From: an uncultured Acidobacteriota bacterium
Lineage (GTDB): Bacteria; Acidobacteriota; Thermoanaerobaculia; Multivoradales; JBCCEF01
DNA: 64,000 bases
NCBI GenBank assembly: GCA_963730155.1
Contig: CAVSQV010000002.1
Coordinates: forward strand, 960,944 to 1,024,943
Direction: 5' to 3'
Shown: piece after piece, positions 5,034 through 27,162 of the stretch
Position numbering within the stretch: the stretch's first letter is position 1
Layout of the letters: the number at the start of each line of letters is the position of its first letter
Position numbers and translations under genes: made by a program
Notes under the pieces: model-generated
The model's database searches: none
What the model saw: the letters and a program-made list of their open reading frames with translations, nothing else
Told to the model about the DNA's origin: nothing

Positions 5034-6952
5034 ATGGCACACCGAGAAGTCACCGAAAAGGAAGCGATGGAGGTTGCGGAGGCCTCCCGCGAGAAGGAGT
5101 GGAAGCAGCCGAGCTTCCTCCGCGAGCTCTTCCTCGGCAACTTCCGGCTCGACCTGATCCACCCCTACCCGCTGCCGCCGACCGAAGAGGAGGAGCGGCC
5201 GGAGTTCCGGGCCTTCTACGAGGCGTTCAAGGAGCTGCTCCGCCAGGAGGTCGATCCGGTCGCGATCGACGCCACCGGCGAGTACCCCGAGTCGTGGTCG
5301 ACGGCCTGCGCAAGCTCGGCGCCTTCGGCATGAAGATCCCGAAGGAGTACGGCGGCCTCGGCTTCACCTCGGTCGAGTACCAGAAGGTGATGCAGCTGGT
5401 CGGCAGCGTCGACGGCAACGTCTCGGCGCTGCTCTCGGCCCACCAGTCGATCGGCGTGCCGCAGCCGCTCAAGCTCTTCGGCAGCCCGGAGCTGAAGAAG
5501 AAGTACCTGCCGCGCTGCGCCGCCGGCGCGATCTCGGCCTTCGCGCTGACCGAGCGCAGCGTCGGCTCCGACCCGGCGCGCCTGCTGACCACCGCCGAGA
5601 AGACCCCCGACGGCGACTACATCCTCAACGGCGAGAAGCTCTGGTGCACCAACGGCACGCTCGCCGAGCTCCTGGTGGTCATGGCCGCGACCCCGAGACC
5701 AAGGCGATCAGCGCCTTCGTCGTCGAGACCGACTGGCCCGGCGTCAAGGTCGAGCACCGCTGCCACTTCATGGGGCTGCGCGCGCTCGCCAACGGCGTGA
5801 TCAGCTTCAAGGACGTGCGCGATCCCGGCCGAGAACCTGATCGGCAAGGAGGGGCATGGTCTCAAGATCGCGCTCATCACGTTCAACGACGGGCGCCTGT
5901 CGCTCCCCAACGGCTCGGTCGGCACCGCCAAGGCGTGCCTCGAGATCTGCCGCAAGTGGTCGAACGAGCGCGTGCAGTGGGGCAAGCCGATCGGCAAGCA
6001 CGAGGCGATCGCCCACAAGCTCGCCGACATGGCGGCCAACACCTTCGCCATGGAGTCGCTGGTCGGGCTCGCCACCGCGATGGCCGACCGCGGCGACTTC
6101 GACATCCGCCTCGAGGCGGCGGCGGCCAAGGAGTGGAACACGGTCCGCGCCTGGCAGATCGTCGACGAGACGATGCAGATCCGCGGCGGCCGCGGCTACG
6201 AGACCGAGACCTCGCTGGCCGCCCGCGGCGAGGAGCCGATGCCGGTCGAGCGCGTGATGCGCGACTACCGCATCAACCAGATCTTCGAGGGCTCGAGCGA
6301 GATCATGCACCTGTTCATGGCGCGCGAGGCGGTCGACAAGCACCTCGAGGTCGCCGGCGCCCTGATCGATCCCAAGAAGGGGCTGTCCGAGAAGCTCGCC
6401 GCGCTGCCGACGATCGGCGCCTTCTACGCCACCTGGTATCCGACCCGCTGGCTCGGCTGGGGGCACTTCCCGCGCTACCGCGAGTTCGGCGACCTCGCCG
6501 GCCACCTGCGCTTCGTCGAGCGCAGCTCGCGGCGGCTCGCGCGCGCGGTCTTCCACGGCATGGTGGTCCACGAGGCGAAGCTCGAGCACAAGCAGGCCTT
6601 CCTGTTCCGCCTGGTCGACATCGCGATGGAGCTCTTCGCGATGGCGACCTCGGCCTCGCGCGCCCACGCGATGACCGAGCGGCGCCACCCCGACGCCGTC
6701 AAGGCCCGTGAGCTGGCCGACCTCTTCTGCCGCATGTCGCGCCGCCGCGTCCGGGCGCTCTTCCGCGAGCTGTGGTCGAACGACGACGTGCGCAAGTACA
6801 AGACCGCCCAGAACGTCCTCGCCGGCCGCCACGTCTGGTTGGAGTCGGGGATCATGGGCCTCGGCGCCACCGCCAGGTCGCTCCAGCCGCCGACTCCGCT
6901 CGAGAGGCGTGGCGAGCGGGTACGGGCGGCACGGCCGGTGGCCGCGGGCTAA
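5034..6952 (+). pseudogene. Long-form acyl-CoA dehydrogenase, reading frame broken 3 times (about 5290, 5695, 5820)
   Basis: A continuous ACAD sequence is recovered only by joining four frames. MAHREVTEKEAMEVAE...GEYPES | VVDGLRKLGAFGMKIPKEYGGLG...LWCTNGTLAELLVVMAATP | ETKAISAFVVETDWPGVKVEHRCHFMGLRALANGVISFKDVR | IPAENLIGKEGHGLKIALITFNDGRLSL...IRGGRGYETE...INQIFEGSSEIM... to the stop at 6952. Confidence 0.8.
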
Positions 6953-7361: not shown

Positions 7362-8454
7362 CCAGGACCCGCTCGCCGTCTTCGGCTGGGATGCCTGGCT
7401 CCCTCTCCTCGACCCTCGGCTCCCCTCTCGGCTGGTCGATCGCCGGGCCCGCGAGTGGCTCGCCGGCGTCTCCCGCCTGGCTCCGGGCGACTGCGCGGGC
7501 GTCCTCGAGCTGAGGCTCGCCGGCGATTCTCCCGCGGTCGACTTCGCCTTCCGCCTGATCCGCCCGGACCAGGCCCGATCGGTCTCCCCCCGGCTCTCCG
7601 CGGCGCGGGCGCGGAGCTTCGTCTCGCGCTGGGCGCGGCGGGAGCCCGAGCTGGAGCCGGTCTCCTCCCTCTGGCTGGAGTTCGACTCTCCCGGCGACGG
7701 CGCCGAGCGGGAGCCGGGGAAACCGCCGGCGCCGCTGCTCTGCGCCCGGTTCGGGCGCGTGGTCGACGCCGGCTGGCTGACCGGGTCGCTGGTGCCGGCG
7801 CTCTGCGGCGAGGCGCTTTCCGCCGCACGGCGCCACATCCTCGACCGCTGCCTCGAGGCGCTCCCCGCCGGGGCGCGCGTGCTCTACTTCTTCAGCCTCC
7901 TCGGCCGGCCCGGGGAAGCGGTGCGGATCGAGATCTTCGGCCTCGACCCGGCGGCCATGGCCGCGTACCTCCGGCAGGCGGCCTCCCCGCGGGAGGCCGA
8001 GCTGGTGGACGCCGCGGCGCCCCTGGTTGCGGGCGCCGGCCGCTACCACCTCTCGCTCGACGTCGGCGCGGAGGTCGCGCCGCGGATCGGCGTCGAGTGC
8101 GGGTTCGAGCGCCAGCCGCGGCGGGAGCCGCGGTGGGCCGAGCTGCTCGATCGGCTGGTTGCGCACCGCCTCGCCGACCCGGCCAAACGCGACGCCGTGC
8201 TCGCCTGGCCGGGCCAGGACAGCCCGTGGACCGCCCCCGGCCGCTGGCCGGCCGCCGCGCTCGGCCTCGGCGGCCACGGCGTCCGCGGCCTGAGCCATCT
8301 CAAGCTGGTGCTCCGCCCCGGCCGCGCGCCGAAGGCCAAGGCCTATCTGCTGTTCCAGCACCTGCCGGCGGGGGCCGGCGCCGGTCAGGGCGCGGCTGCG
8401 ACCGGCGCCGGCAGTCCGAGTGCGCCGGCCAGCTCCGCCACCTGTCCGCGCTGA
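7348..8454 (+). CDS. Hypothetical protein adjacent to the Nif11-type precursor (candidate tailoring enzyme)
   Basis: Track ORF 7144..8454. The part upstream of 7348 overlaps the precursor gene and is Arg/Pro-rich. GTG at 7348 is the first plausible start (start uncertain). About 368 aa with normal composition and five strand-turn-strand segments separated by helical stretches. No family recognised. Confidence 0.5.
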   Translation: MAAPDQDPLAVFGWDAWLPLLDPRLPSRLVDRRAREWLAGVSRLAPGDCAGVLELRLAGDSPAVDFAFRLIRPDQARSVSPRLSAARARSFVSRWARREPELEPVSSLWLEFDSPGDGAEREPGKPPAPLLCARFGRVVDAGWLTGSLVPALCGEALSAARRHILDRCLEALPAGARVLYFFSLLGRPGEAVRIEIFGLDPAAMAAYLRQAASPREAELVDAAAPLVAGAGRYHLSLDVGAEVAPRIGVECGFERQPRREPRWAELLDRLVAHRLADPAKRDAVLAWPGQDSPWTAPGRWPAAALGLGGHGVRGLSHLKLVLRPGRAPKAKAYLLFQHLPAGAGAGQGAAATGAGSPSAPASSATCPR

Positions 8455-10010
8455 GCCGCCAGGCCGAGCCCCGCGAAGGTCCGGTCGGCCTCGCCGAGCC
8501 TGGCGGCGGCGAGGTCGCGATCGCCCGCGGCGTGGGCCAGGCGGGCGAGGTCGAGCCGGGTCCAGGCGAGCTGGAACGGCGCCTCGATCGAGGCGAAGGT
8601 CGCCTCGGCCTCGCCCAGGCGCGCGGCGGCCTCGTCGCGGTCGCCGCCCGCCAGCGCAATCCGTCCCAGGGCGCGCAGCGCCAGCCCGGCGCCGTACGGG
8701 AAGCCGGCCTCGCGGGCGATCTCGTGCCCCTCGGTCCCGGCCTCGCGGGCCTCCTCGGGGCTGCCGGCGGCGAGGTGAGCCTCGGCGAGGAAGGCCGCGA
8801 ACCAGGCCTGGAGCTGCCGCATGCCGGTGCCGGCGAGGCGTGCGCCGGCCTCGCGCAGGGAGCCGATCGCCGCCCGGGCGTCGCCCTGGGCAAGGTAGGC
8901 GAAACCGAGGAATCCGGTCGCGACGGCGGTGTTGAGTGGATCCCTCGAGCGCTCGACGCCGCGCCGGCAGAACTCGACCGCCTCGTCGAGCCTCCCCTCG
9001 CAGGCGTGGAGATGGCCGATGCTCCACGAGGCGTCGAGGCGGTAGTCGTCGAGCGCCTCACCGATCGCGCAGGCGCGGTGGAACGCCCCGAGCGCCTGCT
9101 CGAGCTGGCCGAGGGCGAAGTGGTGGAAGCCGGCCACCCAGTAGGCCTGCCCCTGCCACCAGGGCTCGGCGCTACGCTCGAGCAGGACCACCGCGCGCAG
9201 GCTCTGCTCGAGCCCGGCCGATCCCTGCCCGGTCCAGAAGGCGACCCGGCCGAGGACGTAGCGGGCCTTGCCCTCGGTGGCCTCGTCGCCGCCCTGCTGC
9301 GCCGCCGCGATCGCGGCCTCGGCGTGCTCGCGCGCCGCCTCGGAGTTGCCGAGGTAGCTGTGGGTGTGGGCGAGCCAGAAGTGGTAGCGAGCGACCAGCG
9401 AGGGCTCGCCGATCCCCTCAAGGTGCTCGCGGTGACGCTCGAACACCTCCAGCGTCGCGGGCAGGCGCGCGAGCGGCAGGAGCGAGTCGGCGAGCTGGAG
9501 CAGGATCTCGACCACCCGCCGGTCGCGCCCCTCCGCGGGCAGGGCGCGGGCGTGCTCGAGCGCCTCGGACAGCGCCTTGGCCGCCTCGGCGTGGGCATAG
9601 CCGGCGGCGGCCCGGGCCGCGAACAGGCTCAGGTAGTGGACGGTCTTGCCGGGGTCGCCGGCACGGGGGTAGTGGTAGGCGAGGCGGTCGTAGACCTCCT
9701 CCAGGCGCCCGGCGTGGAGCGCCTCGAGGGCCGCCGCGGCCTGGGCGTGGAGCGCCCGCCGGCGGCTCTTGAGCAGGCTCTCGTAGGCCACCGTCTGGAT
9801 CAGCGAGTGCTTGAAGGTGTAGAGCTCGCGGTCGACCTCCGGCGCGCTGTAGAGGAGCTCGCGATGCTGGAGGTCGGCAAGGAGCGGCGGCAGCGGCTCG
9901 CCGCGGTCCCAGATCCGATCGAGCAGATCCACCGACAGCTCGCGCCCGAGCACCGAGGCGAGCTGGAGCAGGTGCTTCTGGGCCTCCGGCAGGCGGTCGA
10001 TGCGCGCCAT
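8385..10010 (-). CDS. Same regulator, C-terminal part: TPR-rich STAND-like domain
   Basis: Begins MARIDRLPEAQKHLLQLASVLGRE. In another frame just upstream, DADPATVQGVLMARIDRL joins it to the 10010..11608 ORF, so one indel near 10040-10060 splits a single protein of about 1070 aa. Repeated TPR-like helices follow (YLGNSEAAREHAEAAIA..., AQGDARAAIGSLREA...). Confidence 0.75.
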   Translation of the reverse strand: MARIDRLPEAQKHLLQLASVLGRELSVDLLDRIWDRGEPLPPLLADLQHRELLYSAPEVDRELYTFKHSLIQTVAYESLLKSRRRALHAQAAAALEALHAGRLEEVYDRLAYHYPRAGDPGKTVHYLSLFAARAAAGYAHAEAAKALSEALEHARALPAEGRDRRVVEILLQLADSLLPLARLPATLEVFERHREHLEGIGEPSLVARYHFWLAHTHSYLGNSEAAREHAEAAIAAAQQGGDEATEGKARYVLGRVAFWTGQGSAGLEQSLRAVVLLERSAEPWWQGQAYWVAGFHHFALGQLEQALGAFHRACAIGEALDDYRLDASWSIGHLHACEGRLDEAVEFCRRGVERSRDPLNTAVATGFLGFAYLAQGDARAAIGSLREAGARLAGTGMRQLQAWFAAFLAEAHLAAGSPEEAREAGTEGHEIAREAGFPYGAGLALRALGRIALAGGDRDEAAARLGEAEATFASIEAPFQLAWTRLDLARLAHAAGDRDLAAARLGEADRTFAGLGLAAQRGQVAELAGALGLPAPVAAAP

Positions 10011-11608
10011 CAGGACCCCCTGGACGGTGGCCGGATCGGCGTCTCCGACGGCAGCCCGGAATCGTCGCCGAGGGCGCGGGCCAGCTCCTCGAGGAAGAAC
10101 GGGTTGCCCTCGGCGCGCTCGACGATCCCGCGTACTGTCTCGGCGCCGACCTCGCGCCCGCGCAGGGCGGCGTTGACCACCGCCTCGCTGTCGGCGGGCG
10201 ACAGGCGGCGCATGACGATTTGGCTGGCGTAGGACTTCTGCAGCCAGCGCGGCTGGTAGCCCGAGCGGTAGGTGAGCAGCAGGAGCGCCCGCGCGCCGCC
10301 GATCTCCTCGATCAGCGACTCGAGGAACTCCTGCGAGGTCTCATCGATCCAGTGCAGGTCTTCGAGCTCCATCACCACCAGATTGCGGCGGCTGGCGGCC
10401 AGGACCATGCGGCGCATGGCGGCGAAGACGCTCGCCTGGAGCGCCCGCGGATCGCCTAGGTCGCCGCCGGCGGCGTCGCGGTGGCCGAGCAGGTGGAGCA
10501 ATGGCCCGAGGTGCTCCTCGTCCCCGAGCCCGACCGCCGCCAGGCTCGCGCGCAGCCGCTCGGCGGCGGTCTCGGCGTTGTCGCTCTCGTCTATCCTCGA
10601 GGCCCGGCGGACCATCCCGATGAACGGGAAGTAGGGGATGCCGCTGGCGTAGGACAGGCAGTGGCCGCGCAGGCGGCTGCCGGGCCGGTCGTGCAGGGTC
10701 CGAGAGAGTTCGATCAGCAGCCGCGACTTGCCCGCTCCGGCCTCGCCCGCGATCCCTGCCACCTGCCCGTGGCCGGCCTCGGCCTGGCCGCGCAGCTCCT
10801 CGAGTACCGCCATCTCGCGGGCACGGCCGACGAACGGGCTCAGCTCTTGCCCCCGGGGCCTCGCGGGTGCGCCGAGGGAGCGGGCGGTGCTGAGCACGCG
10901 CCAGACCGGCTCGGCGCCGGCATCGCCCTCCGGCAGCGGCCCCAGCGACTCCAGCTCCAGCTCCGGCTCGACCAGCGCCGCGATCTCGGCTCCGGCCAGG
11001 ATCCAGCCCGGTTGCGCGAGGTCCACCAAGCGGCGGGCGCGGTCGGCGGCCGGACCGACGATGGCGCCCGCCGGCCCGCCGATGATCACGCTTCCGCTCG
11101 CGAGCCCGATCCGGGCCTCGACGCTGGGCCCCTCGTCCTCCGACTCGCGGAGTCTGCGCGTGAGTTGGAGGGCGGCCAGGGCGGCTCGTTGCGGGTGGTC
11201 CTCGGCGGCGACCGGGGCGCCGAACAGGGCCAAAAAACCGCGACCGAGGAGCTGGGTCACAGTACCGCCGAAGCGCTCGACCTGCTCGCGTGCAACGTGC
11301 ACGAACTGGTTGAGCAGAGCGTGGAGGTCCTCCGCCTCGGCGTCGCCGGAGGTCGGGGTCATCAGCTCGCCGAGCAGGATGGTGATCTGCTTGATCTCAC
11401 CCTCTCGCGCCGCCGGACCGGGCGCGGCGCTCGCCTGCACGGCCGGATCGGGCGCGGCCAGCTCGGCGCCGCAGGAGCCGCAGAAGCGCGCGCCCGACAC
11501 CGCCGCCGCGCCGCAGCGGGGGCAGGCGGAGTCCAGCGGGGTTCCGCATCGCATGCAGAACCGGGCTTGCGGGGGACTCTCAAGGTCACAGCGCGAGCAA
11601 ACCATCAT
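10010..11608 (-). CDS. Signal-transduction regulator, N-terminal part: double zinc ribbon + adenylate/guanylate-cyclase-like domain + AAA/P-loop
   Basis: MMVCSRCDLESPPQARFCMRCGTPLDSACPRCGAAAVSGARFCGSCG (4 CxxC pairs). Cyclase-like GEIKQITILLGELM...RFGGTVTQLLGRGFLALFGAP. P-loop GIAGEAGAGKSRL. Ends in an out-of-frame tail; continues in 8385..10010. Confidence 0.8.
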   Translation of the reverse strand: MMVCSRCDLESPPQARFCMRCGTPLDSACPRCGAAAVSGARFCGSCGAELAAPDPAVQASAAPGPAAREGEIKQITILLGELMTPTSGDAEAEDLHALLNQFVHVAREQVERFGGTVTQLLGRGFLALFGAPVAAEDHPQRAALAALQLTRRLRESEDEGPSVEARIGLASGSVIIGGPAGAIVGPAADRARRLVDLAQPGWILAGAEIAALVEPELELESLGPLPEGDAGAEPVWRVLSTARSLGAPARPRGQELSPFVGRAREMAVLEELRGQAEAGHGQVAGIAGEAGAGKSRLLIELSRTLHDRPGSRLRGHCLSYASGIPYFPFIGMVRRASRIDESDNAETAAERLRASLAAVGLGDEEHLGPLLHLLGHRDAAGGDLGDPRALQASVFAAMRRMVLAASRRNLVVMELEDLHWIDETSQEFLESLIEEIGGARALLLLTYRSGYQPRWLQKSYASQIVMRRLSPADSEAVVNAALRGREVGAETVRGIVERAEGNPFFLEELARALGDDSGLPSETPIRPPSRGS

Positions 11609-11755
11609 AGGGGGCCTCGGCGGAAGTCTAGCGCTATCGAGTTCCCTGCTGAAGCATACATACGCATAACCGTGTATGAGTCGATTTGCATTCTGGACTC
11701 AAATGAGTTAAGCTTGGCTTTGTCGGCCTTGACTGCTCGCAACCAGCGTTCTCGG

Positions 11756-11950
11756 ATGGCTGAGTACCCCGATCCCGTCATGACCGCCAGCATCAACTGC
11801 AACCGGCGCCTCAACCGTCTGGTGCAGGTCTCCGTCCGCCACCGGCAGGCAGCTCCGTCCACCTGGTCCTTCCGCTACGGCAAGTGCGGCGAGCACCTGA
11901 AGATCCGCGTGCGCGGTCCGCCGGAGATGACGACATTGAGCAGCTATTGA
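11756..11950 (+). pseudogene. 64-codon fragment resembling the start of a SpaB_C / thiopeptide-type bacteriocin biosynthesis domain
   Basis: ATG at 11756 to TGA at 11948-11950 (tail of track ORF 10481..11950). In MAEYPDPVMTASINCNRRLNRLVQVSVRHRQAAPSTWSFRYGKCGEHLKIRVRGPPEMTTLSSY, the W.FRY....HLKIRVRG block resembles the WFF(I)RY..PHLRLR motif near the N-terminus of lanthipeptide-dehydratase C-terminal-type domains. It is far too short to be functional. Lies in lower-GC DNA. Confidence 0.3.
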
Positions 11951-11975
11951 CAAAACCAGTGGCGACTGTTAGACC
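11947..11975 (+). promoter_or_regulatory. Candidate sigma70-type promoter for the precursor operon
   Basis: Consensus TTGACA at 11947-11952, 17-nt spacer, weak -10 TAGACC at 11970-11975, about 50 nt upstream of the precursor ATG. Sits in the only lower-GC intergenic stretch of the locus. Pattern match only. Confidence 0.25.
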
Positions 11976-12026
11976 GTAAGCAGACTGTGTCAGAACCACA
12001 GAACCTCAACCCGACAGGAGGGCCCC

Positions 12027-12182
12027 ATGGCTGAAAACACCCCCAAGACCAAGGAAGAAATGGAGGAGCGCCTCGAAGATCTGCAGCTCGATCCGGAAGA
12101 CCTCGACGCCGTGGCCGGTGGCGCGACCTGCCAGACCTGCTACAGCTCGTACCAGCCCAAGGACGTGGAGGTCGAGTCCTGA
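12027..12182 (+). CDS. Double-glycine-leader RiPP precursor peptide (51 aa, not in ORF track)
   Basis: AGGAGG at 12016-12021, ATG at 12027, TGA at 12180-12182. Translation MAENTPKTKEEMEERLEDLQLDPEDLDAVAGGATCQTCYSSYQPKDVEVES: acidic leader ending DLDAVAGG (compare ELDEVAGG in the 7065 precursor). 19-aa core ATCQTCYSSYQPKDVEVES is rich in Cys/Ser/Thr/Tyr. Lies immediately upstream of the modification genes. Confidence 0.7.
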   Translation: MAENTPKTKEEMEERLEDLQLDPEDLDAVAGGATCQTCYSSYQPKDVEVES

Positions 12183-12226
12183 GCTGACATGCCGGCAGGG
12201 CTGCGCTCACCGCGCTCGCCCTTCCA

Positions 12227-12261
12227 GTGCGGCTTCCTGGCTGATTGCCAGGAAGCCGCAC
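12227..12261 (+). terminator. Perfect 15-bp stem-loop between precursor gene and enzyme genes (attenuator / transcript-stabilising hairpin)
   Basis: GTGCGGCTTCCTGGC (12227-12241), loop TGATT, GCCAGGAAGCCGCAC (12247-12261): exact reverse complements, 45 nt after the precursor stop. No U-tract follows, so it is not a canonical intrinsic terminator. Confidence 0.5.
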
Positions 12262-12307
12262 CGGAAGCCGAACGTCTCACTTCTGGTTAGAGAGGGCCCA
12301 GACCGTC

Positions 12308-13870
12308 GTGTACGTCGACCCCGTCAACGACAGCGTTGAACGTGCGTGGACTCACAATGTTCCTTTCGGTGACTGCCGGTACATCCGTCAACGGGTGATC
12401 GACAGCGTCAGCCGGCGGCTCGATCTTGCACAGCGCTTGTTCCCCCAGGCGACGCCTGTTCTGGAGCGACTCCGATCTCTGGATGACGCGACCGCCGCTC
12501 GTGTGCTTGAGCACCCGTTCCTGCGCTCCGTGGTGCTTGCCGCAATCCGGCACCTGAAACACCCGTGGGAAACCCTTACACACGAGCAAGTCGAGCAGTA
12601 CCTCGAACAGCTCGGGATCCTGCTCGCCGAAGGCTGGAGAGGCGGGAAGCTCTACTCGCTCTCCCTGCTGCTGGAAGAAGAGGATGACGAGGGTGCGGCC
12701 CGACACAAGCTCTGGCAGTGGACTGGCGAACAGGGAGATCGGACGCTCACGGGTATTACCCCCACGGTCTTCCTGAAGAACAGCCCCAACTGCGTCTTTC
12801 ATCGTCCCACCGAGGAGGAGGCCGGGAACCTCCGCCAGGGGATTGCGCTTCTCCGGGAGCTCTTCCCTCTCCTGGCGCCCAGCGTCCTGCGTCATGTCGA
12901 TGTCATCGCACTCGTCAGTGCCAAGCCCGCTCGCGGCGAGGCCAGGCTTCCCGACGGCAACCCCCTCACTACCGATCCGCTCCTCTCCTCTACCGCCGAT
13001 ACATCGCCCGGGGTGGTCTTCGTCAGCCCCAGTGTGCTGACCAACCCCTGGTATATCGCGGAAATCATCCTGCACGAGGGCCTTCATTCGAAGCTGTATG
13101 ACGTGATGGCGACACACAACCTGCTTCGGCCGAACTACACGAATGAAGAGTCTGCCCAGATCCACCCGCTGTGGCACAGATCTTCCGTATCGTGGGATGT
13201 GCACCGCTCCCTCTTCGCCATGCACGTCTATGCCCACCTCGCCCTGTTCTTCCAGCGGGTGGCCAGGAACTTCGATGCGCTGGCACCACGCTTCGGACCT
13301 CTCCATGTCATCGATGCACGGCTGTCGATGCGCCGCTCGCTCGATCGAGCGCACTTCCTCGGAATGAAGCTGGCGGAGGTCGGCACCCGGGACCTGGGAG
13401 CCGCTGGCCAGCTCCTGCTTGCGCAGCTTCAGGAGATGCTGCTGGTGCTCGATGGCGCGTACGGAGAGGATGCTTCCGTGAATGCCGCGCCCAGGCCCGA
13501 AGAGGTGGCTCAGCGACTCGTCGGGGACCTGTATGCTCGACAGACCCTGGCGCTGGAGCGCGTCCTCGCCCACTGGCGCACGATCTCCTCGCACCCCCAG
13601 GGCGCCGGCATCCCCGCCCTCCTCACCGAAGTCGCCCAACTGGACGCCGCGCTCGTTGGGCAGGATGCGGCCATACCGCCGATCTCCGCTGAGGTCAAGG
13701 ACACGCTGAGAGTACTCATCGACCTCCGGAAGCAGGTGGCCCATCGGTTTATGAACGGGGGGGCATCGCCCAGCCGCTCGGAGATCAGCCTCGACACCCT
13801 GATGGACTCCGCCGACCGCTCGGGAAGCCTGTTCGCTCGAGCCAACATCACGATCGAACTCGACCCCTGA
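12308..13870 (+). CDS. HExxH-motif domain protein 1 (TIGR04267-like; candidate peptide-modifying metalloenzyme)
   Basis: Track ORF 12245..13870. The TTG at 12245 lies inside the hairpin, so GTG at 12308 is preferred. Motifs: VPFGDCRYIRQR, LLRELFPLLAP, NPWYIAEIILHEGLHSKLYD (HExxH), HPLWH, HVYAHLALFF. Paralogous to the next gene. Confidence 0.8.
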   Translation: MYVDPVNDSVERAWTHNVPFGDCRYIRQRVIDSVSRRLDLAQRLFPQATPVLERLRSLDDATAARVLEHPFLRSVVLAAIRHLKHPWETLTHEQVEQYLEQLGILLAEGWRGGKLYSLSLLLEEEDDEGAARHKLWQWTGEQGDRTLTGITPTVFLKNSPNCVFHRPTEEEAGNLRQGIALLRELFPLLAPSVLRHVDVIALVSAKPARGEARLPDGNPLTTDPLLSSTADTSPGVVFVSPSVLTNPWYIAEIILHEGLHSKLYDVMATHNLLRPNYTNEESAQIHPLWHRSSVSWDVHRSLFAMHVYAHLALFFQRVARNFDALAPRFGPLHVIDARLSMRRSLDRAHFLGMKLAEVGTRDLGAAGQLLLAQLQEMLLVLDGAYGEDASVNAAPRPEEVAQRLVGDLYARQTLALERVLAHWRTISSHPQGAGIPALLTEVAQLDAALVGQDAAIPPISAEVKDTLRVLIDLRKQVAHRFMNGGASPSRSEISLDTLMDSADRSGSLFARANITIELDP

Positions 13871-13880
13871 GGATTGTCTC

Positions 13881-15002
13881 TTGACGAGCTACGCCGAGAC
13901 ACAGACAGCATGGCTATCTGCGGAGAAGCAGCTGGCTCAGGACGTGCCGTTTGGCTCCGCCGACTACATCCGCGAGCGAGCTGCCGCGAGCTACCACCGT
14001 CGCCTGGAGTTGCTGGGCGAGCACCTACCCGCGGCCGAGCGGTTCGCCGAGGCGCTCGGCCCCGCCGCGAGCAGCGACTCCATCCAGGTCTTTGCGGATC
14101 CGGTCGTCCGGGGTTCCATCGACGATCTTCTTCGGGCCTTCAGGTTCGCCGGAGAGCGGAAGCCCAATGACGACCAGCTCGAGCTCTTCGCGTACTACAG
14201 CGCGCGTCTCGACGAGCTGAAGCGCGATGCCGCGGACACCGCTGACAGCTTTCGACAGGAGCTCCTCGACCGGCCGATTCGATATTGGTCCGATGCGAGC
14301 GCCCGGACGGTCCGTGACCGCGCCTTCGCTGCGATGTTGCGGCGGCACCTGCCGGGGGCGCGCGTCTACGAGGCGGAGGCGGAGACGGAGGCCGCCATCA
14401 GCCAAGGCTTGGCGCTCCTCCAGGAGCTGCTGCCGCTGGCTGCACACAGCGCCGTGTCTCATCTTCACTTCGTCATAGTCGACGAGTTCTACGACAAGGT
14501 GGGTTCCGCGACGATCGCCCCCATTCTCGGGACGATCTTTCTGGCTCGAAGCACGCTACGGAGCCCCTGGACCATCGCGGAGGGCATCCTCCACGAGTGC
14601 ATGCACCTCAAGTTCGTGGAGCTTGAGCATACGCATTCGCTCCTGCCCCGGGGTTACTCCGAGCAGGCCTCTCCTCGTCTTCATCCGCCCTGGCACCCCG
14701 AGACGGAGGCCTGGCCGATGAACCGGGCGCTCACGGCGGCCCATGTCTACGTCACCCTCGCCCTGTACTCGGTGGCCTCCGAAGCAGCGGCGCCGGAGTT
14801 TCAGGCGCGCTATGGTCCGTGCCGGCGTTCGCAGCTTCTCGTTGATCCGATCGCTGCCGGCGCACGCGCGCGCAGTCTCATCGACCTCGCGTCGGGGCAC
14901 CCCGAGAGCCTGGGCAAGGCAGGGCGGGCGTTCCTCGAATGGATGAGGGATGTCCTTGAGAAGCTGGCGGCAGGGCCCACCGTGCTGCGCAAGGCTGTCT
15001 GA
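13881..15002 (+). CDS. HExxH-motif domain protein 2 (paralog of the preceding gene)
   Basis: TTG at 13881, 7 nt after GAGGA (13869-13873). 373 aa. Motifs: VPFGSADYIRER, LLQELLPLAAH, SPWTIAEGILHECMHLKFVE (HExxH), HPPWH, HVYVTLALYS. Collinear with protein 1 but lacks its C-terminal extension of about 150 aa. Confidence 0.8.
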   Translation: MTSYAETQTAWLSAEKQLAQDVPFGSADYIRERAAASYHRRLELLGEHLPAAERFAEALGPAASSDSIQVFADPVVRGSIDDLLRAFRFAGERKPNDDQLELFAYYSARLDELKRDAADTADSFRQELLDRPIRYWSDASARTVRDRAFAAMLRRHLPGARVYEAEAETEAAISQGLALLQELLPLAAHSAVSHLHFVIVDEFYDKVGSATIAPILGTIFLARSTLRSPWTIAEGILHECMHLKFVELEHTHSLLPRGYSEQASPRLHPPWHPETEAWPMNRALTAAHVYVTLALYSVASEAAAPEFQARYGPCRRSQLLVDPIAAGARARSLIDLASGHPESLGKAGRAFLEWMRDVLEKLAAGPTVLRKAV

Positions 15003-15006
15003 GACC

Positions 15007-16155
15007 TTGCCCGTACACGAGCTGCCGGCGGTGCCCCCTGCCGAAACAGCCGCGCCCATTCCCGGCCGCGCCACGGCAGCCGCAACAGCCGAGTACGCCC
15101 GGCGTCTTCAACGGGTCGCTCGTCCTGAGCACTTCCGCGACGTCCATGGCTTGACGGTCTCGTCGATCGGCATCGGCACCTTCCTGGGTCCCGCGACCAG
15201 CGAGGCCGATGCAACCTACCGCAGCGCCATCGCTCGAGCCATCGAGCTCGGGTGCAATCTCATCGACACGGCGATCAACTACCGCCACCAGCGCGGCGAG
15301 CGGTGCGTCGGCGCGGCGGTGCGCGCTGCCTGTGAAGACGCCACCCGGCGCAGTGAGCTCGTCGTCTCGACCAAGGCCGGCTACCTGCCGTTCGACGGAG
15401 AGATGCCTCAGGACGCGAACCGATACCTGCACGAGCAGTACGGGGAGCGCTTGCAGCTCGCGCCCGACGAGATCGTCGAGGGTCACTGCATCGCTCCCGC
15501 ATTCCTGCGGGACCAGATTGCCAAGAGTCGCGTCAACCTCGGGCTTGAGACCCTCGACGTCTTTTACCTGCACAACCCCGAAGAGCAGCTCCGTTTCGTC
15601 GATCGGGCGATCTTCGAGCGCCGACTGCGCGCCGCCATGGCCACCCTCGAGGAGTCCTGCCGGCAGGGGCACGTCGCCAGCTATGGCCTGGCGACCTGGA
15701 CTGCCTTTCGCGAGAGTACGGAGCACCCGCAGTACCTGTCACTCGACGAGGTCGTCCGGTGGGCGGCCGAGGTGGGGGGGCCGCAGCATCACTTCCGCTT
15801 TCTTCAACTGCCGTTGAACCTGAAGGCACTTGAGCCCTGTATGCTCGCCAACCAGTGGCACGATGGCCGGTGGTGCACTCTGCTTCAAGTCGCGCAGGCC
15901 CATGGCATTTACATCGTCACCTCCGCCCCTCTGTTGCAGGGGCGCATCCTCGGTCGGCTGCCCCTGCCCATCAAGGAGGCCTTCGCCACGCTGTCCAGCG
16001 ATGTGCAGCGCACCGTGCAGTTCGTGCGCTCGATACCCGGAGTCGGCAGCGTGCTGGTGGGAATGAGTCGTCCCCAGCACGTGGAGGAGAACCTGGCGCT
16101 GGCGGGTTTCGCCCCGGACACCGCCGCCGTGCAGCAAGTGTTCCGGCGCAGCTGA
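15007..16155 (+). CDS. Aldo/keto reductase family oxidoreductase
   Basis: Track ORF 14950..16155. TTG at 15007 is 5 nt after the upstream stop; the ATG at 14950 would overlap by 53 nt, so the start is uncertain. AKR pattern GLTVSSIGIGTFLG...AIELGCNLIDTAINYRHQRGERCVG...VVSTKAGY...LDVFYLHNP. Confidence 0.8.
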   Translation: MPVHELPAVPPAETAAPIPGRATAAATAEYARRLQRVARPEHFRDVHGLTVSSIGIGTFLGPATSEADATYRSAIARAIELGCNLIDTAINYRHQRGERCVGAAVRAACEDATRRSELVVSTKAGYLPFDGEMPQDANRYLHEQYGERLQLAPDEIVEGHCIAPAFLRDQIAKSRVNLGLETLDVFYLHNPEEQLRFVDRAIFERRLRAAMATLEESCRQGHVASYGLATWTAFRESTEHPQYLSLDEVVRWAAEVGGPQHHFRFLQLPLNLKALEPCMLANQWHDGRWCTLLQVAQAHGIYIVTSAPLLQGRILGRLPLPIKEAFATLSSDVQRTVQFVRSIPGVGSVLVGMSRPQHVEENLALAGFAPDTAAVQQVFRRS

Positions 16156-16240
16156 CACACGACGGGCGGGGGGCGCTCTACCGTTGAGCGCCAGCGTGTG
16201 GGCACTCATCGGGCGCTCGGCTAGGAGCCCTGGATTCTTC

Positions 16241-17326
16241 ATGTCGGGTCCACTGGTTTCCATTGTCATTCTGTCGTGGAACCGGCCCAGGTCCACCCGC
16301 TCGACCCTTCGGGCTCTCGCCGACGTTCCGGCCGGCGTGCCGCGCGAGGTCATCGTCGTGGACAACGGCTCCAACGAACGAACAGGCGACGAGCTGACGG
16401 CGCTCCAGGGCCTGGGGCTCATCGATCGCCTCGTCCTGCTGCCCGAGAACCGGGGAACGTCTCCTGGTTACAACGTGGGCTTCCGTGCCGCAGATCTCCG
16501 CTCGAGCTTCTTCACTAAGCTCGACAGCGACGTCGAGATCCTGACGCCGGACTGGCTGAAGGAGCTGATCGGGCTGCTGGACGAGAATCCCGGCGTCGGA
16601 ATTGCCTCGACCGAAATCGTCAACCACGTTGGCATCCAGGAGCTGCCCGTCATCCGCCTGGAGACCGGGCACCAGGTGCGGGACTGGCAAGGGTGCCCGG
16701 CGGGAGGCGGCGGGATGACGTTTCGCCGCTCGCTCTACGAGGATGTCCGCGGCTTTCGGGAGAGCTACGGTGAAGGCCTGTTGCTGATGCCGGACGACCT
16801 GGAGTTCTTCTACAGGATCCGAGAGCGAAACCTGAAGGCCTACTACGCCCACGCCATCCACTCGCGGACGATCGACCACCTCGAGGAGAGCCCCGCCTCC
16901 TATCACGCCTTCAAGAAACGGCAGTACTTCCTACTGCGCACCCGCTACTTCGATCTAGCCCGCACCGGCGACACGGTCTTCGTACCCCACTTCGTTTCCG
17001 TGGAGGCTCTTCCGACCCTCATCCATCCCGGGCAATCGATCCATGTGCGCTGCTCCATCGCGGCGGCAGATCGACGCAGCATGGCCCTTGGATGCACGGT
17101 GGTCTCGGCGGAGACGAACAGCATCGCGGACTGTAGCGTGACCGCGGACATCCAGACCGCGGCGCCCCTCTCCGTGCACGAGTTGCCGCTCCGGATTCCA
17201 CCCACCTTGCTGCCCGGGCCCTACCTCGTGAAAGCGATCCTTTGGAGCGACCCCACCGCAGGGGTCGTTTCCGAACGCCTGGCGGACCTCGTGCAGATGG
17301 GCGAGATCACTCTCGAGCCTGGTTGA
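16241..17326 (+). CDS. Family 2 glycosyltransferase with a C-terminal extension of about 120 aa
   Basis: ATG at 16241 (codon 20 of track ORF 16184..17326). GT-A signature [12 protein letters not shown]...[13 protein letters not shown]...[12 protein letters not shown]...KLDSDVEI (DxD). The C-terminal third ([23 protein letters not shown]...[10 protein letters not shown]) is beta-rich and unassigned. Confidence 0.8.
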
Positions 17327-17396
17327 AACCGACGAGCGGGACCCGCGCCGACTCCGGCGGCCGAGCAGATCGGCGGGGAGGACGGGCGGCATCCGA

Positions 17397-20300
17397 TCAG
17401 ACCTGCTGCCGCTCGACCATGCGGCGGAAGGTGCCCCGGCCCCCGGCCAGCTCGTCGTACGTCCCAGCCTCCACCACCCGACCCCGTTCCAGCACGTAGA
17501 TGCGGTCGGCGTTCTGGATCGTGCTCAGGCGGTGGGCGATGACGATGCGCGTCGCCTTCAGGCCCTCCAGGCTGTCGGCTGACGATCTCCTGCGTGCGGT
17601 TGTCGAGGGCGCTCGTCGCCTCGTCGAAGAGGATGATCCGCGGCCGGTGGACGATCGCGCGGGCGATCAGCAGGCGCTGCTTCTGGCCGCCGGAGAAGGT
17701 CTCCGCCGCCCTCGCTGATCACGGTGTGCATGCCCATCGGCATGGCCTTGATGTCCTCCTCCAGGCCGGCCATGCGCGCCGCCTCCCAGGCGTCGTCGAT
17801 CCCCAGGTTGCGAGCTGCCGACGATGTTGGAGAAGATGTCCCCGGCCATCGGCCGGCCGTTCTGGAGGACGACGCCGATCTGGCGGCGCACCGACTGGAG
17901 GGCGAGCGCGGCGAGGTCCTGGCCGTCGAAGTAGATCGAGCCCGGCGGTCGGCTTCTCGAAGCCGAGGATCAGCCGCAGGCAGGTCGACTTGCCGGCGCC
18001 CGAGGGCCCGACCAGGGCGATGAACTCCCCGGGCCGGGCCCGGAACGAGACGTCGTCGAGGATCAGCGGCCCGTCCTCCTGGTAGCGGAAGGAGACGTGG
18101 CTGAACTCGATCTCGCCGGCCAGCTCGCCGGCCTCGGCCTTGGATCGGATCGACCTCCGGGGACTGCCTCGAGGATCGGCTGCAGGCGCTCGTAGACCGG
18201 CACCATGGCCAGCACGCTGGAGAAGATCGCCGATCATCGTCAGCGCCGCCGCCAGGAACTGGCCGAAGGCGGCGTTGAAGGCCAGGAACTCGCCGATCGA
18301 CAGGCGATCTCCTCCGGCGGAGAAGCCGACCATCGGCGAAGATGGCCAGCGAGGTGAGCACGCCGTAGACGGCGTTGAACGCGGCCTGGACGTTGGCGAC
18401 CCGCTGCGCCGCGACGGCCTGCTCGCCGCTGCTCGGCGAAGCGCTCGGCCCAGCGGCGCGAAGGCGCGCGTGCTCGGCGCCGCCGACCCGGAGCTTGGCG
18501 ATGCCGTGGATCAGGCCGAAGAGGAGGCTCGCGATCTTGCCCTGCGAGGCTCGAGGAAGCGGCGCTGGTGGCGGAGCTGGAGGTAGGCGCAGGCCGGTGG
18601 TCACCGCCACCAGCAGCGGCCACCAGGCCGGTCGCCACCAGGGCCAGCCGCCAGCTGTAGTAGAAGAGCAGCGCCGAAGCTGAAGACGGAGAAGACCGCC
18701 GCCAGGACCGAGGTCAGGACGTTGCCCGGTCAGCAGCTCGCGGATGGTGTCGATGCCCAGCGAGCGGTTCGCCAGGTCGCCCACGGTGAAGCGGCGGAAG
18801 AAGGACACCGGCAGCGACAGCAGCCGGTCCCAGACGGCGGCCTGGAGCGAGCCGTCCATCTTGCCGCCGAGGCGCAGCACCGCGATGCTGCGGGTCACCT
18901 GGAAGACCGGCGCGGCGAGCGCGGCGAGCGATCAGGGCCAGGGTGATCTGGACGAGGCGGGCGCGGTCGGCCGCCGGGATGACGTTGCCGAAGAGCTGGC
19001 CGGTCAGGATCGGCACCAGCAGCCCGAGCAGGCCGCCGCCGAGCCCCATCAGCAGGATGGTCGCGAGGTCGCGCCGGCGGCCCGCGAAGGCGAGGCCGCA
19101 GGAGGTCCCGCAGGCGCAGCGGCCGCTCGGGCAGCGGCGGATAGAACATGTACGCCTCGCCGGCGAGGCTCTCCGCCACGGCCGGCGTCGACCGGCGTGC
19201 GGCGTCCGCTCGACCGGATCGACCAGCTCGTAGCTGCGGGGCGAGGTGGGCAGCAGGGCCACCGGCCGGCCGGCGCTTCTGCTGCGTCGTCCGCGGACCG
19301 GAAGCGCCACGAGCGGGCCGTTGTCGCGGCGCCACCAGTCGTCGCGCAGGATCACCCGCCGGTGGCGGATCCGCGACGCCGCGCAGATCCGGGCGAGCCG
19401 GTCTCCGCTGGCGGCAGCTCGGCCGTCGCGTCCGGCGGGCTGCGGATGCTCGATGCCCTGGACCTCGCCGACCAGCCGGCAGGCGGCGAGCAGGGGGTCG
19501 GAGCCGGCGTCGAGCGGCGCGCCCGCGGCGGTCCGGGCGCCGAGCACCGAGGCCAGCCGGGCGTAGCGCCGTCTCCAGGGTCGGGCGGTCGAGGTCGGTC
19601 TTGCGGCCGAGCCGCTCCCGCTCGTCGCTGCGCGTCCTCCTCGCGCAGCCGGTGCGACGTAGGCGAGCAGCAGGCGGTGGAAGCGGTCGAGCCCCTCCCA
19701 GAGCGCCGCCGCTCCGTAGCAGGCGCTCGCGGTCGACGCACGAGAGGGATCCGCACCTCGCCGTCGCTGACCAGCCAGGTCTCGTCGGGGACCGGCAGGA
19801 GGAAGTCCTCGGGCGGCGAGGGCCAGGTCGTCGCCGGCCGAGGAAGCGGAGCGACCCGTCCAGGTGGCGCACCCAGACGACGCCGTCGGGCGGTGCGCAG
19901 CGCGCCGTCCCCACCTCGGCCAGGCGCACCTCGGCGCCGGGCCGCAGCTCCTGGAAGACCTTCGGCGGCCGGCCGCGGACGACCTCGCCGGTCAGCCGCC
20001 GCACCCAGCCGTCGAGCCAGCGGGTCAGCGCCGGCGGCGAGCTCCGTCCGGCGCGCCAGCTCGCGGAGGGCGGCGGCGGGCAGCCGGAGCAGCCGGGTGC
20101 CGGGGTGGCCCACCGCCAGGAGGGCGCTCCGGGGCTCGCGCGCGTCGCCGACGCGCCGCTCGACGGCCTGGAACGGCGGAGCTGCCGGCCGAGGTCGAGG
20201 CTCGCCACGAGCTCGCCGCCGTCGAGGGTGGCGAGATGCTGCGGACGCCGTCGCCCGCGCCGGCGCCGCTCCCGCCGCGCGGCGGCGCACGGCGAAGAGC

Positions 20301-20439
20301 TCGACCCGCCCGGTGCGCACCAGCCAGGCCGCTCGCGCCGGCGCCGAGCCGCAGCGGCGGGTTGCCGCCGGCCTCGATCTCCTCGCGCCGTCGGCTCGGC
20401 GAGGCAGGCGGTCAGGTCCAGGTCGGCCGGGGTGCTCAT
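17397..20439 (-). pseudogene. NHLM/NHLP-type bacteriocin export ABC transporter, permease/ATPase subunit with long N-terminal regulatory-like domain; heavily frame-disrupted
   Basis: ATG at 20439, TGA at 17397-17399. Real sequence is spread over all three frames. Recognisable pieces: [180 protein letters not shown] (Walker A), [14 protein letters not shown] (signature), [11 protein letters not shown] (Walker B), [30 protein letters not shown]. Four frame changes traced in the last 520 nt alone. Confidence 0.8.
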
Positions 20440-20446
20440 CGGTCGC

Positions 20447-22699
20447 TCACTCGGCTGCGATCAGCCGGGCGTAGGGGCCTTCCGCACGCGCCTTGAGCTC
20501 GTCGTGGGTCCCGCGCTGCGACGACCTTGCCGCGCTCGAGGACGATGATCTCGTCGGCGTCGCGGATGGTGCTCAGGCGGTGGGCGATGATCAGGCAGGT
20601 GCAGCCGCGCCGCCGCAGGCTCTCGTCGATCCGCTTCTCGGTCGTCGGGATCGAGCGCGCTGGTCGCCTCGTCGAGCACCAGGAGCGTCGGCCGGCCGAC
20701 CAGCGCGCGGGCGATCTCCAGCCGCTGGCGCTGGCCGCCGCTCAAGTTGGCGCCGCCCTCCTCGACCGGGCTGTCGTAGCCGCCGGGCCGGGCCGCGATG
20801 TCGTCGTGGATGCAGGCGTCCTTGGCCGCGGCCACCACCTCCGGGCAGCGGCACCGTCGCGTCCCACAGCGTCAGGTTCTCGCGCACCGTCCCCTCGAAC
20901 AGGAAGACGTTCTGGTCGACCACGGCCAGCGAGTTGGTCGAGCACGCCGCGGCGGGATCTCGGCGCGGCTGCCGGCCGTCGAACAGGATCTCGCCGCTCC
21001 CACGGCTGGTAGAGCCCGGTGACCAGCCGGGCGACCGTCGACTTGCCGCTCCCCGAGCCGCCGACCAGGGCGACGCGGGCGCCGGGCTCGAGCCGCGAGG
21101 TCGAGGCCCTCGATCAGCGGCGGGTCGAGCCGGCTGTAGCCGAAGGTGACGCCGCGCAGCTCCAGCCGGCCGGCGAGCTTGACCGGCAGCTCCGCGGGCG
21201 GCTCCTCCGGCGCCGCCCCCGGTCGGCCGCGGTCGCGCGGTCGACCTGGTAGCGCAGCACGTCGTCGAGCCGGTTCATGTCCCCCTCGACCACCTGGAGC
21301 CGGCCGCCGAGGCTGACCAGCCGGTTGACCGGCGCGATGAAGCTGCGCCATCAGGACCTGGAAGGCCACCAGCCCGCCGAGCGTCAGGTCGCCGTCCATC
21401 ACCCGCAGGCCGCCGAGGCCCAGGATCAGCGCGGTGTTGACCGCCGGCGAGCAGCGGCGGCACGGCGTCGAGCATCTGGGTGTAGCGCTCCAGCTCCTGC
21501 CGGCGCGTTGACCACCTTGGCCTGGTAGCCGGCCCAGCGGGCGAAGAGGTCCGCCTCGCCGCCGGTCGCCTTCAGGGTCTCGATGATCTGCAGGCCGCCG
21601 ATCGCCGTGCCCATGGAGCTTGCCCTGGTCCTGGAGCAGGCGGCGGTTGCCGTCGACCCGCTTGCGCGAGACCCAGCGCAGGGCCGCGACGTTGAGCGAG
21701 ACGACGCCGATGCCCGACCAGGGTCAGCAGCGGGTCGTACTGGACCATCAGGACGGCGAAGAAGACGATCATCAGCGCGCCCAGGGCGTTGGTCGCGAGG
21801 TCGCGCGACGAGGAGCTGGGCCACGCGGTCGTTGATCGCCGACCCGCGAGCTGATGTCGCCGGCGAAGCGCTGGGTGAAGAACTCGATCGGCAGGCGCAG
21901 CACGTGCCAGAGGAAGCGGCTCGAGCCGGCCACCGCCAGCCGGGTCTCCAGGCGCAGCAGGTAGGCCTGCTGCAGCCAGGTCAGGAGCGCCGGTCAGCGA
22001 GCGCGGCGAGCGCCCATGCCGAGGAGCAGCGGCGGCAGCCAGTCGCGGCGGCCCTCGAGCAGGACGCTCGTCGACGAAGACCTTGGAGAAGACCGGCGAC
22101 GACCAGCCCCGGGACGACCAGGGCCAGGCCGGCGAGGCAGCACGAAGGCGAGCGCCGCCGCCGGCGCCGGCGAGCCGGCGGCGCGAGCGCCGGGAGCAGG
22201 CTGCGGCGGCGCGCCGCCGCGTCTCGAACTCCGGACCCGGCTCGAAGGTCAGCACCACGCCGGTGAAGCGCCTGGTCGAGCTCCTCCTCGCGTCACCGCG
22301 CGCGGCCCGGCGGCCGGGTCGTTCAGGTGGACGCCGCCCCTTGCGGAAGCCCTCGAGGACCACGAAGTGGTTGAAGTTCCAGTGCAGGATCATCGGCGGC
22401 TGCGAGCGTCGCGCAGGGCCTGCCGGCTCCTTCTTGAACCCCTTGGCCTCCAGGCCGTAGCGGCGCGCCGCCTTGACCATGTTGCTCGGCCTTGCTGCCG
22501 TCGCGCGAGACGCCGCAGGCGATGCGCAGCTCCTCGAGCGGCACCCAGCGGCCGTAGTGGGCGAGGACGATGGCGAGGGCCGCCGCGCCGCACTCGACCG
22601 CCTCCATCTGGAGGACGGTCGGGCGTGCGCACCGGCCGCGGCGAGCGCGGTCGCCGCCGCCGCGGCCGAGCCAGCGGGCGAGGAGCGCCGGAGCTTCAT
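20447..22699 (-). pseudogene. NHLM/NHLP-type bacteriocin export ABC transporter with N-terminal C39 peptidase domain (PCAT); heavily frame-disrupted
   Basis: ATG at 22699 overlaps the HlyD stop (ATGA). TGA at 20447-20449, 7 nt before the next gene. C39 domain: [88 protein letters not shown] part: [32 protein letters not shown], and in another frame [24 protein letters not shown]...[18 protein letters not shown]. Many frame changes. Confidence 0.8.
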
Positions 22700-27149: not shown

Positions 27150-27162
27150 CTCTTGCTGAAGG

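Follow-up and report, generated by a model that had tools for sequence, protein, structure and literature searches.

Paired HExxH-family proteins encoded with a small precursor peptide and an aldo-keto reductase in an uncultured Acidobacteriota bacterium

An HExxH gene pair of the TIGR04267 family

We analysed a 64,000-nucleotide stretch from an uncultured Acidobacteriota bacterium (assembly GCA_963730155.1, contig CAVSQV010000002.1, positions 960,944 to 1,024,943 of the forward strand), hereafter the window, whose own numbering is used throughout. Two adjacent genes at 12308-15002 encode related proteins with an HExxH motif, proteins 1 and 2, in one operon with a small precursor peptide and an aldo-keto reductase (AKR). 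Both proteins can be placed with high confidence in the family of alpha-ketoglutarate (aKG)-dependent HExxH peptide oxygenases (TIGR04267), and the best explanation for the locus, which we put forward with moderate confidence, is that they are paired Fe(II)/aKG oxygenases that modify the core of the co-encoded precursor. The enzymes are new members of a known family, their orthologues being already named as such by NCBI; what is uncharacterised is their peptide family and the conserved pairing with a second oxygenase and a reductase.

12308-13870, plus strand: protein 1, 520 aa, GTG start, with a C-terminal helical tail; predicted aKG-HExxH-type peptide oxygenase
13073-13087, plus strand: HExxH motif of protein 1 (HEGLH; H256, E257, H260), seen in the translation
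13881-15002, plus strand: protein 2, 373 aa, TTG start, core domain only; predicted aKG-HExxH-type peptide oxygenase
14592-14606, plus strand: HExxH motif of protein 2 (HECMH; H238, E239, H242), seen in the translation

The GTG start of protein 1 coincides with the start of its orthologues, which give no backing to a longer TTG open reading frame (ORF) from 12245. Protein 2 begins 10 nt after the protein 1 stop codon, with AGGA upstream of it. Third-position GC content (GC3) agrees with both called frames and, together with the homologues, favours the plus strand over a 485-aa opposite-strand ORF (12287-13744), which is an artefact of high GC. A separate Logan assembly yields identical 520-aa and 373-aa products. 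An earlier note, made from the sequence alone, had described two ORFs with five collinear blocks at this place and proposed aligning them; translation and BLASTP bear this out. The two proteins share 26-27% identity over 373 columns (93.6 bits, E=3e-25), a similarity that lies well above chance by its alignment score, and the alignment recovers all five blocks: VPFG(D/S)..YIR(Q/E)R, LL(R/Q)EL.PL, PW(Y/T)IAE.ILHE..H.K, HP(L/P)WH and HVY..LAL(F/Y).

TIGR04267 (IPR026337) currently carries the NCBIfam name 'aKG-HExxH-type peptide beta-hydroxylase' and a curated cutoff of 40 bits. Its hidden Markov model (HMM) matches protein 2 over profile positions 2-177 of 177 (50 bits, E 3.4e-13) and protein 1 over positions 38-134 only (38.5 bits, E 1.1e-9); no Pfam model matches either protein. 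AlphaFold2 (AF2) models, built on homologue alignments, reached pLDDT 89.7 and pTM 0.91 for protein 2 and 87.4 and 0.89 for protein 1, and set the motif on a helix in each (residues 256-260 in helix 247-269 of protein 1, 238-242 in helix 229-251 of protein 2). When both models were compared with the PDB by Foldseek, chains of 8S5F, the structure of ChlH, ranked first (probability 1.00, TM 0.61-0.69 by target; E 2.4e-9 for protein 2 and 1.2e-7 for protein 1). SjiH (22OB) was the other significant match (E 2.7e-7 and 1e-6), and beyond these two entries nothing was found at E < 0.01 with either model, the next matches lying at E 0.018 for protein 2 and 0.45 for protein 1. The PDB title of 8S5F reads 'a novel alpha-ketoglutarate dependent oxygenase'. 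Direct sequence searches of the PDB with proteins 1 and 2 returned nothing relevant, and ChlH was reached by profiles only, those of the clade detecting it at E 6e-4 and 6e-7. The Corallococcus orthologues of both proteins already bear the name 'aKG-HExxH-type peptide beta-hydroxylase' at NCBI, and in a HMMER scan of 1.84 billion cluster representatives 1058 relatives reached E<=1e-3, of which 348 reached E<=1e-30. The family is made up of mononuclear Fe(II)/aKG oxygenases that act on precursors of ribosomally synthesised, post-translationally modified peptides (RiPPs), and not of proteases (PMC12636437, PMC12707348, PMC12257519, PMC13060819). The guess in the earlier note of an aKG/O2-dependent TIGR04267 family is thus upheld by the HMM, the fold, the profile-level homology to ChlH and the adjoining precursor.

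What that note had called a duplication has to be revised. By identity to protein 1, protein 2 comes 86th among 154 sequences, and in the reverse comparison protein 1 comes 107th among 155; because each is as distant from the other as from most members of the clade, the ranks indicate an ancient, maintained pairing of divergent clade members and no recent tandem duplication. These ranks were used in place of a neighbour-joining tree of 160 sequences, which is star-like and leaves the branch points of proteins 1 and 2 unseparated. Protein 1 has 41 homologues, and orthologues of the two proteins always lie on the same contigs. Those from Acidobacteriota metagenome-assembled genomes (MAGs) and metagenomes are 71-84% identical for protein 1 and 72-83% for protein 2, those of Corallococcus llansteffanensis 51% and 55%, and those of a more distant lineage 41-45%; a third homologue search, made with the alignment and capped in its candidates, added almost nothing, and the metagenome scan returned only 6 loci. 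A natural fusion of two complete HExxH units also exists (P0082, 1044 aa). In one Acidobacteriota MAG (L002), the protein 1 orthologue is interrupted at its 3' end by a 361-aa transposase-like ORF (11559-12644), which takes the place of the last ~25 tail residues and sets the two genes ~1.2 kb apart. Archangium loci carry tandem HExxH genes that are more distant from the pair; a search near these for precursor-like ORFs gave none that was convincing, and their neighbours by Pfam are an M4 peptidase and a di-haem peroxidase, with no AKR.

Precursor peptide and operon partners

The operon runs in the order precursor, hairpin, protein 1, protein 2 and AKR, with a family 2 glycosyltransferase (GT2) in some loci, and its five genes are intact in the window.

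12027-12182, plus strand: precursor gene, 51 aa; leader MAENTPKTKEEMEERLEDLQLDPEDLDAVAGG, core ATCQTCYSSYQPKDVEVES; AGGAGG 6-7 nt 5' of the ATG
12227-12261, plus strand: hairpin in the gap from precursor gene to protein 1, with a perfect 15-bp stem and a 5-nt loop
14950-16155, plus strand: AKR (PF00248, E 1.6e-22), conserved fourth operon member
16184-17326, plus strand: GT2 glycosyltransferase (PF00535, E 1.6e-14), accessory member

The precursor gene ends 125 nt upstream of protein 1 and encodes an acidic, helix-prone leader (LQLDPEDLDAVAGG) with a double-glycine end. In 14 other loci, homologous small ORFs sit directly 5' of the protein 1 orthologue. Across these precursors the leader LQ(L/I)DPEDLDAVAGG is highly conserved, ending in (A/V)GG in 13 of 15 and in VVAA in the two most divergent, and the core C-x-T-C-Y-(S/T)-x-Y is invariant in all 15, with two Cys, two Tyr, a Thr and a Ser/Thr as its invariant residues. 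Lengths differ among the precursors, with 1 to 7 residues in the linker that follows the GG and 1 to ~20 in the C-terminal tail. The VVAA leaders, with no GG, are those at the loci of two protein 2 orthologues, P0075 and P0076.

The earlier note had allowed for more than one precursor; the window holds a single one. The Logan assembly also calls a 64-aa ORF at 11756-11950; as a second precursor it was set aside, having no family match, no resemblance to the precursors and no conservation. One metagenomic contig (L047) does carry two precursor copies (51-230 and 619-800), which share the leader and a C-S-T-C-Y-S-D-Y core and differ in their tails. In Sorangium cellulosum (L051, 7723-7881), a 52-aa precursor with an LQLDxxDLDAVA leader and a different core, RCVSLSPDGAACGMYYEIFEF, adjoins a single protein 1-like enzyme, with PEP-utilising (rifampicin-phosphotransferase-like) genes and an MFS transporter downstream. 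Because this precursor keeps the leader and changes the core, the comparison suggests that the leader motif is a recognition element for this enzyme clade. A small ORF 5' of a distant HExxH gene in an Acidimicrobiaceae MAG (L007, 9160-9411), with the His/Asp-rich C-terminus DPGHHHDHMDDHDHG, may be a precursor of the ChlH-like type hydroxylated on Asp and His.

The intergenic hairpin probably sets the ratio of precursor to enzyme transcript. The RNA of 12176-12312 folds at -72 kcal/mol (z=-4.9), and none of 200 shuffled sequences folded as well. The hairpin is kept in 7 acidobacterial loci with one compensatory pair, and Corallococcus has another strong hairpin in the same place. As a canonical intrinsic terminator it was rejected, there being no T-run after the stem.

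An AKR gene follows protein 2 in every sufficiently long locus (L001/L003, L002, L004, L006, L048 and L050). Precursor, protein 1, protein 2 and AKR are thus conserved together in Acidobacteriota; Corallococcus has the first three, and its contig stops before any AKR. The catalytic D/Y/K/H motif residues of the AKR are legible (IDTAINY, STKAG, YLHNP), and its true start may lie ~26 codons downstream of the called one, as in orthologue calls. GT2 is present in the window, L001/L003, L004 and L006, is absent in L048 and L050, and was not detected in L002; its top NCBIfam match is MftF, at 47.7 bits far under the cutoff of 280. PDB sequence searches with GT2 and the AKR were uninformative.

Gene fusions join the same activities. 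The 150 best clade representatives include three HExxH-AKR and nine HExxH-methyltransferase fusions, and the clade also holds one HExxH-DUF6875 fusion. Full-length identity between the window AKR and the AKR domains of P0179 and P0185 is 41-44% (E 8e-73 and 2e-75); the third HExxH-AKR fusion carries an AKR of a different lineage (E 4e-5). As gene architecture, the HExxH-HExxH and HExxH-AKR fusions imply functional coupling, and since two independent AKR lineages are fused to HExxH, the AKR would act on the oxygenase product. Among the papers searched, none connected HExxH enzymes with aldo-keto reductases.

The GC content of 12000-18000 is 64-67%, against 70-79% in most of the rest of the window. 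This lower GC fits horizontal acquisition of the operon, which is found in Acidobacteriota and in Myxococcota.

Conserved residues, proposed pathway and rival explanations

In an alignment of 160 clade sequences, numbered after protein 2, eleven positions are conserved in at least 87%: H194, H238, E239, H242, K244, W271, W278, R282, H288, Y290 and R329. All of them are kept in both proteins and in nearly all their orthologues. H194/H196, the HExxH motif and the K, W, W, R, H, Y and R are unchanged in 64 of the 81 sequences of the orthologue set, and the remaining ones are mostly truncated fragments or distant homologues. Because every clade-invariant residue is retained, both paralogues look catalytic and are predicted to be so. 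The earlier note had drawn a metal centre from three His blocks. Clade-wide conservation favours two of them, the HExxH motif and the HVY His; the third fares differently, the HP.WH block having its Trp in 160/160 sequences and its two His in 20/160 and 26/160, a rarity that makes these His unlikely metal ligands. In the profile alignment with ChlH, HExxHxK and the PW Trp match, and R282, H288 and Y290 face non-identical residues.

The tail of protein 1, absent in protein 2, was also re-read.

13460-13867, plus strand: C-terminal helical tail of protein 1, residues ~385-520, ~135 aa

The tail itself is real, with five helices predicted by AF2 (397-421, 423-427, 430-450, 463-482 and 495-511) and no Pfam match; what does not stand is its description as an extra of protein 1. 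Most clade members are ~500-540 aa long with a motif around LVGDLYARQ, and a DLYxRE-type tail motif occurs in 82 of 225 sequences (median length 515 aa), as well as in both halves of P0082. The tail is thus ancestral to the clade and missing from protein 2-type proteins through loss. It is also lacking in three orthologues of protein 1 (P0032-P0034, 397-398 aa) and therefore cannot be an indispensable recognition module; a putative leader-binding role is a reasonable idea.

We propose the following pathway. Both enzyme genes would be co-transcribed with the precursor, and the conserved leader would recruit both enzymes, which are predicted to be standalone, mononuclear non-haem Fe(II) proteins of a zincin-like helical fold. 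Fe(II) would be held by the two HExxH His and a third His from the long helix that comes next, for which the HVY His is the probable candidate (protein 1 H306, protein 2 H288). With aKG and O2 each enzyme would build an Fe(IV)=O species, and this would take a hydrogen from a single, specific core residue, the two enzymes oxidising different positions of the octapeptide; that there are two distinct modification sites, as the earlier note suggested, fits the make-up of the invariant core and seems to us about evenly balanced. By analogy with BipH, the most likely targets would be the beta-carbons of Tyr5 and Tyr8, an assignment that we offer tentatively. The AKR would then process the oxidised intermediate, GT2 would decorate the product in some lineages, and a C39-type ABC exporter would cut the leader at GG.

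Characterised members of the family give this pathway its precedents and its limits. ChlH is reportedly the HExxH domain of ChlBH, a radical SAM-HExxH fusion from Chlorogloeopsis (Morishita et al., Nat Chem 2024). It shares with the window enzymes the fold, the HExxHxK and PW motifs, profile-detectable homology (E 6e-7) and a RiPP precursor as substrate, but it is fused to a radical SAM cyclophane synthase and requires a pre-formed cyclophane, whereas proteins 1 and 2 are standalone and paired, with no radical SAM gene. It also has no identical counterparts of the clade-invariant W278, R282, H288 and Y290. ChlH beta-hydroxylates Asp and His (PMC12636437, PMC12707348, PMC12257519, PMC13060819), in contrast to the Cys/Thr/Tyr/Ser core found here. 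BipH/BpmH of the biphenomycin pathway beta-hydroxylates ortho-Tyr (PMC12707348, PMC12257519); as a standalone aKG-HExxH enzyme acting on an aromatic residue of a short RiPP core, it is the best precedent for Tyr beta-hydroxylation. It differs in its precursor family, which is unrelated (FRF core), and in its partners: it is the single HExxH enzyme beside an MNIO, a B12-radical SAM enzyme, an arginase and a JmjC hydroxylase, with neither an AKR nor a second HExxH enzyme. PflC/PosC of Pseudomonas, likewise standalone and leader-dependent, show that the family performs more than one reaction, beta-hydroxylating Gln and Asn and carrying out oxidative C-terminal cleavage (PMC12636437). They differ in acting on Gln runs and an ARMD tail in a precursor with a nitrile-hydratase-like leader, and their partners are an MNIO-nitroreductase and a GNAT protein, not an AKR or GT2. 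PesO of the nitrilobacillin pathway is a further standalone aKG-HExxH beta-hydroxylase in a RiPP operon, acting on Pro (PMC13060819), with another precursor and with an MNIO, an asparagine-synthetase-like nitrile synthetase and M16 peptidases as partners. The SjiH structure, Ni-bound and released in February 2026, aligns with TMq 0.60 to protein 2 and 0.49 to protein 1.

Several observations weigh against reading the pair as Fe(II)/aKG oxygenases that hydroxylate the core. The HMM score of protein 1 falls 1.5 bits under the curated TIGR04267 cutoff, a shortfall that its homology to protein 2 (E 3e-25) and its fold match appear to make up. Identity of proteins 1 and 2 to ChlH is just 14-15%, and the profile alignment sets no ChlH His opposite the HVY His, those of ChlH on that helix lying at -3 and +4 relative to H288. 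P0075 (L048, 4291-5424) and P0076, the protein 2 orthologues from where the cluster has diverged most, have Gln in place of the HVY His. The Cys, Thr and Ser of the core are no less invariant than the Tyr. An AKR, finally, has no role in a plain hydroxylation pathway, and a carbonyl product is possible.

This last point leads to a reading in which the enzymes belong to the same family and one or both perform other chemistry, with a carbonyl or crosslink as the outcome and no stable beta-hydroxyl; we consider it unlikely, though worth serious attention. The two oxygenases and the AKR would then form an oxidation-reduction module that installs on the octapeptide a modification novel for the family, a possibility that we rate equally low. 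That modification could be excision of the octapeptide by oxidation, the alpha-ketoacyl end then being reduced, net epimerisation, or paired Cys-Tyr (i,i+4) crosslinks. For excision, PflC-type alpha-hydroxylation and scission would trim linker and tail and leave an alpha-ketoacyl or amide terminus, and the AKR would reduce the keto end to alpha-hydroxyacyl. Desaturation or over-oxidation followed by AKR reduction would amount to net epimerisation or a keto-to-alcohol conversion. Crosslinks would join Cys1 to Tyr5 and Cys4 to Tyr8, both i,i+4 and all among the invariant core residues, which include two Cys and two Tyr. The AKR is conserved as strongly as the oxygenases, the fusion of two separate AKR lineages to HExxH points to the oxygenase product as the AKR substrate, PflC/PosC set a precedent for oxidative backbone cleavage (PMC12636437), Xia et al. 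reportedly described an aKG-dependent Cys-Tyr crosslink in a RiPP in 2025 (cited in PMC12636437), and the octapeptide flanks differ greatly from precursor to precursor, in length as in sequence, which is what discarded segments would show. Against this, most characterised family members are plain beta-hydroxylases, and the nine methyltransferase fusions of the clade fit O-methylation of a stable hydroxyl. The double-glycine leader and nearby C39 transporter speak for proteolytic removal of the leader, and the residues flanking the motif are not limited to the small ones that favour PflC-type cleavage. The enzyme behind the crosslink of Xia et al. may be of another fold.

The pair could also be an obligate heteromer with one catalytic subunit, in which the other, for example the tail-bearing protein 1, mainly recruits the leader. 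Genes that are always together and 10 nt apart, the two-unit fusion P0082, a helical tail on only one of the two and the Gln at the HVY His in P0075 and P0076 would all suit such an arrangement. We nonetheless find it improbable: the clade-invariant residues are kept in ~40 orthologues of each protein, which argues for purifying selection on both active sites, tail-less protein 1 orthologues occur, and other single HExxH enzymes work alone (PMC12636437, PMC13060819). Still less credible, to the point of being very improbable, is that the proteins are zinc metallopeptidases (zincins) cutting the leader or unrelated peptides. An HExxH helix followed by a second long helix is zincin-like, several orthologous loci show no nearby protease, and PflC has latent metal-dependent hydrolysis, with leaderless substrates (PMC12636437). 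Yet neither protein has a Pfam peptidase match at E 0.01 or better, and the Foldseek matches at E < 0.01 contain both characterised aKG-HExxH structures and no solved zincin, anthrax lethal factor and BepA appearing only at E 1.9-3.8 with TM 0.09-0.15. The motif, HExxHxK(F/L), carries no Gly-x-x-His and no extension of the metzincin or gluzincin type, the invariant residues (Arg, Lys, His and Tyr) are well suited to binding aKG, and experiments show that the native reaction of the family is not that of a peptidase. Paired oxygenation of the precursor core remains the explanation that we prefer.

The enzymes of this family have been known as oxygenases only since 2024, and each newly studied member has brought a new substrate or reaction (Asp, His, aromatic residues, Gln/Asn, Pro, backbone cleavage). 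With at most five genes the locus makes a compact test system, and its two divergent members facing one invariant eight-residue motif are suited to the study of site selectivity. If the pair are plain hydroxylases, the gain is modest, a further substrate for a known family; the reductase fusions elsewhere mean that the pathway may show family chemistry beyond hydroxylation. Should the oxidation-reduction module be real, it would define a new RiPP class in largely uncultured Acidobacteriota, a phylum that is dominant in soil and from which hardly any natural products have been characterised, and the MftF-like GT2 would be a hint that the small peptide is glycosylated and possibly redox-active or metal-binding.

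Surroundings of the operon

Downstream of GT2 lies a frame-broken region on the opposite strand.

17558-23216, minus strand: ABC transporter remnants with a C39 peptidase domain (ABC_tran, ABC_membrane and Peptidase_C39 split over ORFs and frames)

These remnants are candidates for leader cleavage and export; in L001 and L050, no C39-peptidase ABC transporter adjoins the cluster. Two ORFs, 21572-22906 and 22323-23216, each hold a part of the C39 domain, and fragments of an outer-membrane efflux protein also lie in the broken minus-strand region (17400-25500). At 17700-17940, three 1-nt frame breaks fall within ~300 nt, and across 17400-24500 the frame indicated by GC3 changes repeatedly. The nearest genomes being long-read MAGs, errors of local assembly are just as likely to explain the transporter frameshifts as pseudogenes.

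Further features were noted on both sides. An acyl-CoA dehydrogenase ORF at 5801-6952 (plus strand) has the C-terminal domains only, and its truncation may be another assembly frameshift. Divergent to the operon, on the minus strand at 8385-11608, what looks like one large regulator shows as two ORFs that overlap by 1 base at 10010; the first has a double zinc ribbon, a guanylate-cyclase-like domain and AAA_16, the second MalT-like TPR repeats, and the two could be a split gene or a coupled pair. Beyond the transporter region lie a full-length DUF7005 protein (25529-26716, plus strand, E 1e-120) and an AbiEii-type toxin nucleotidyltransferase (26679-27662, minus strand).

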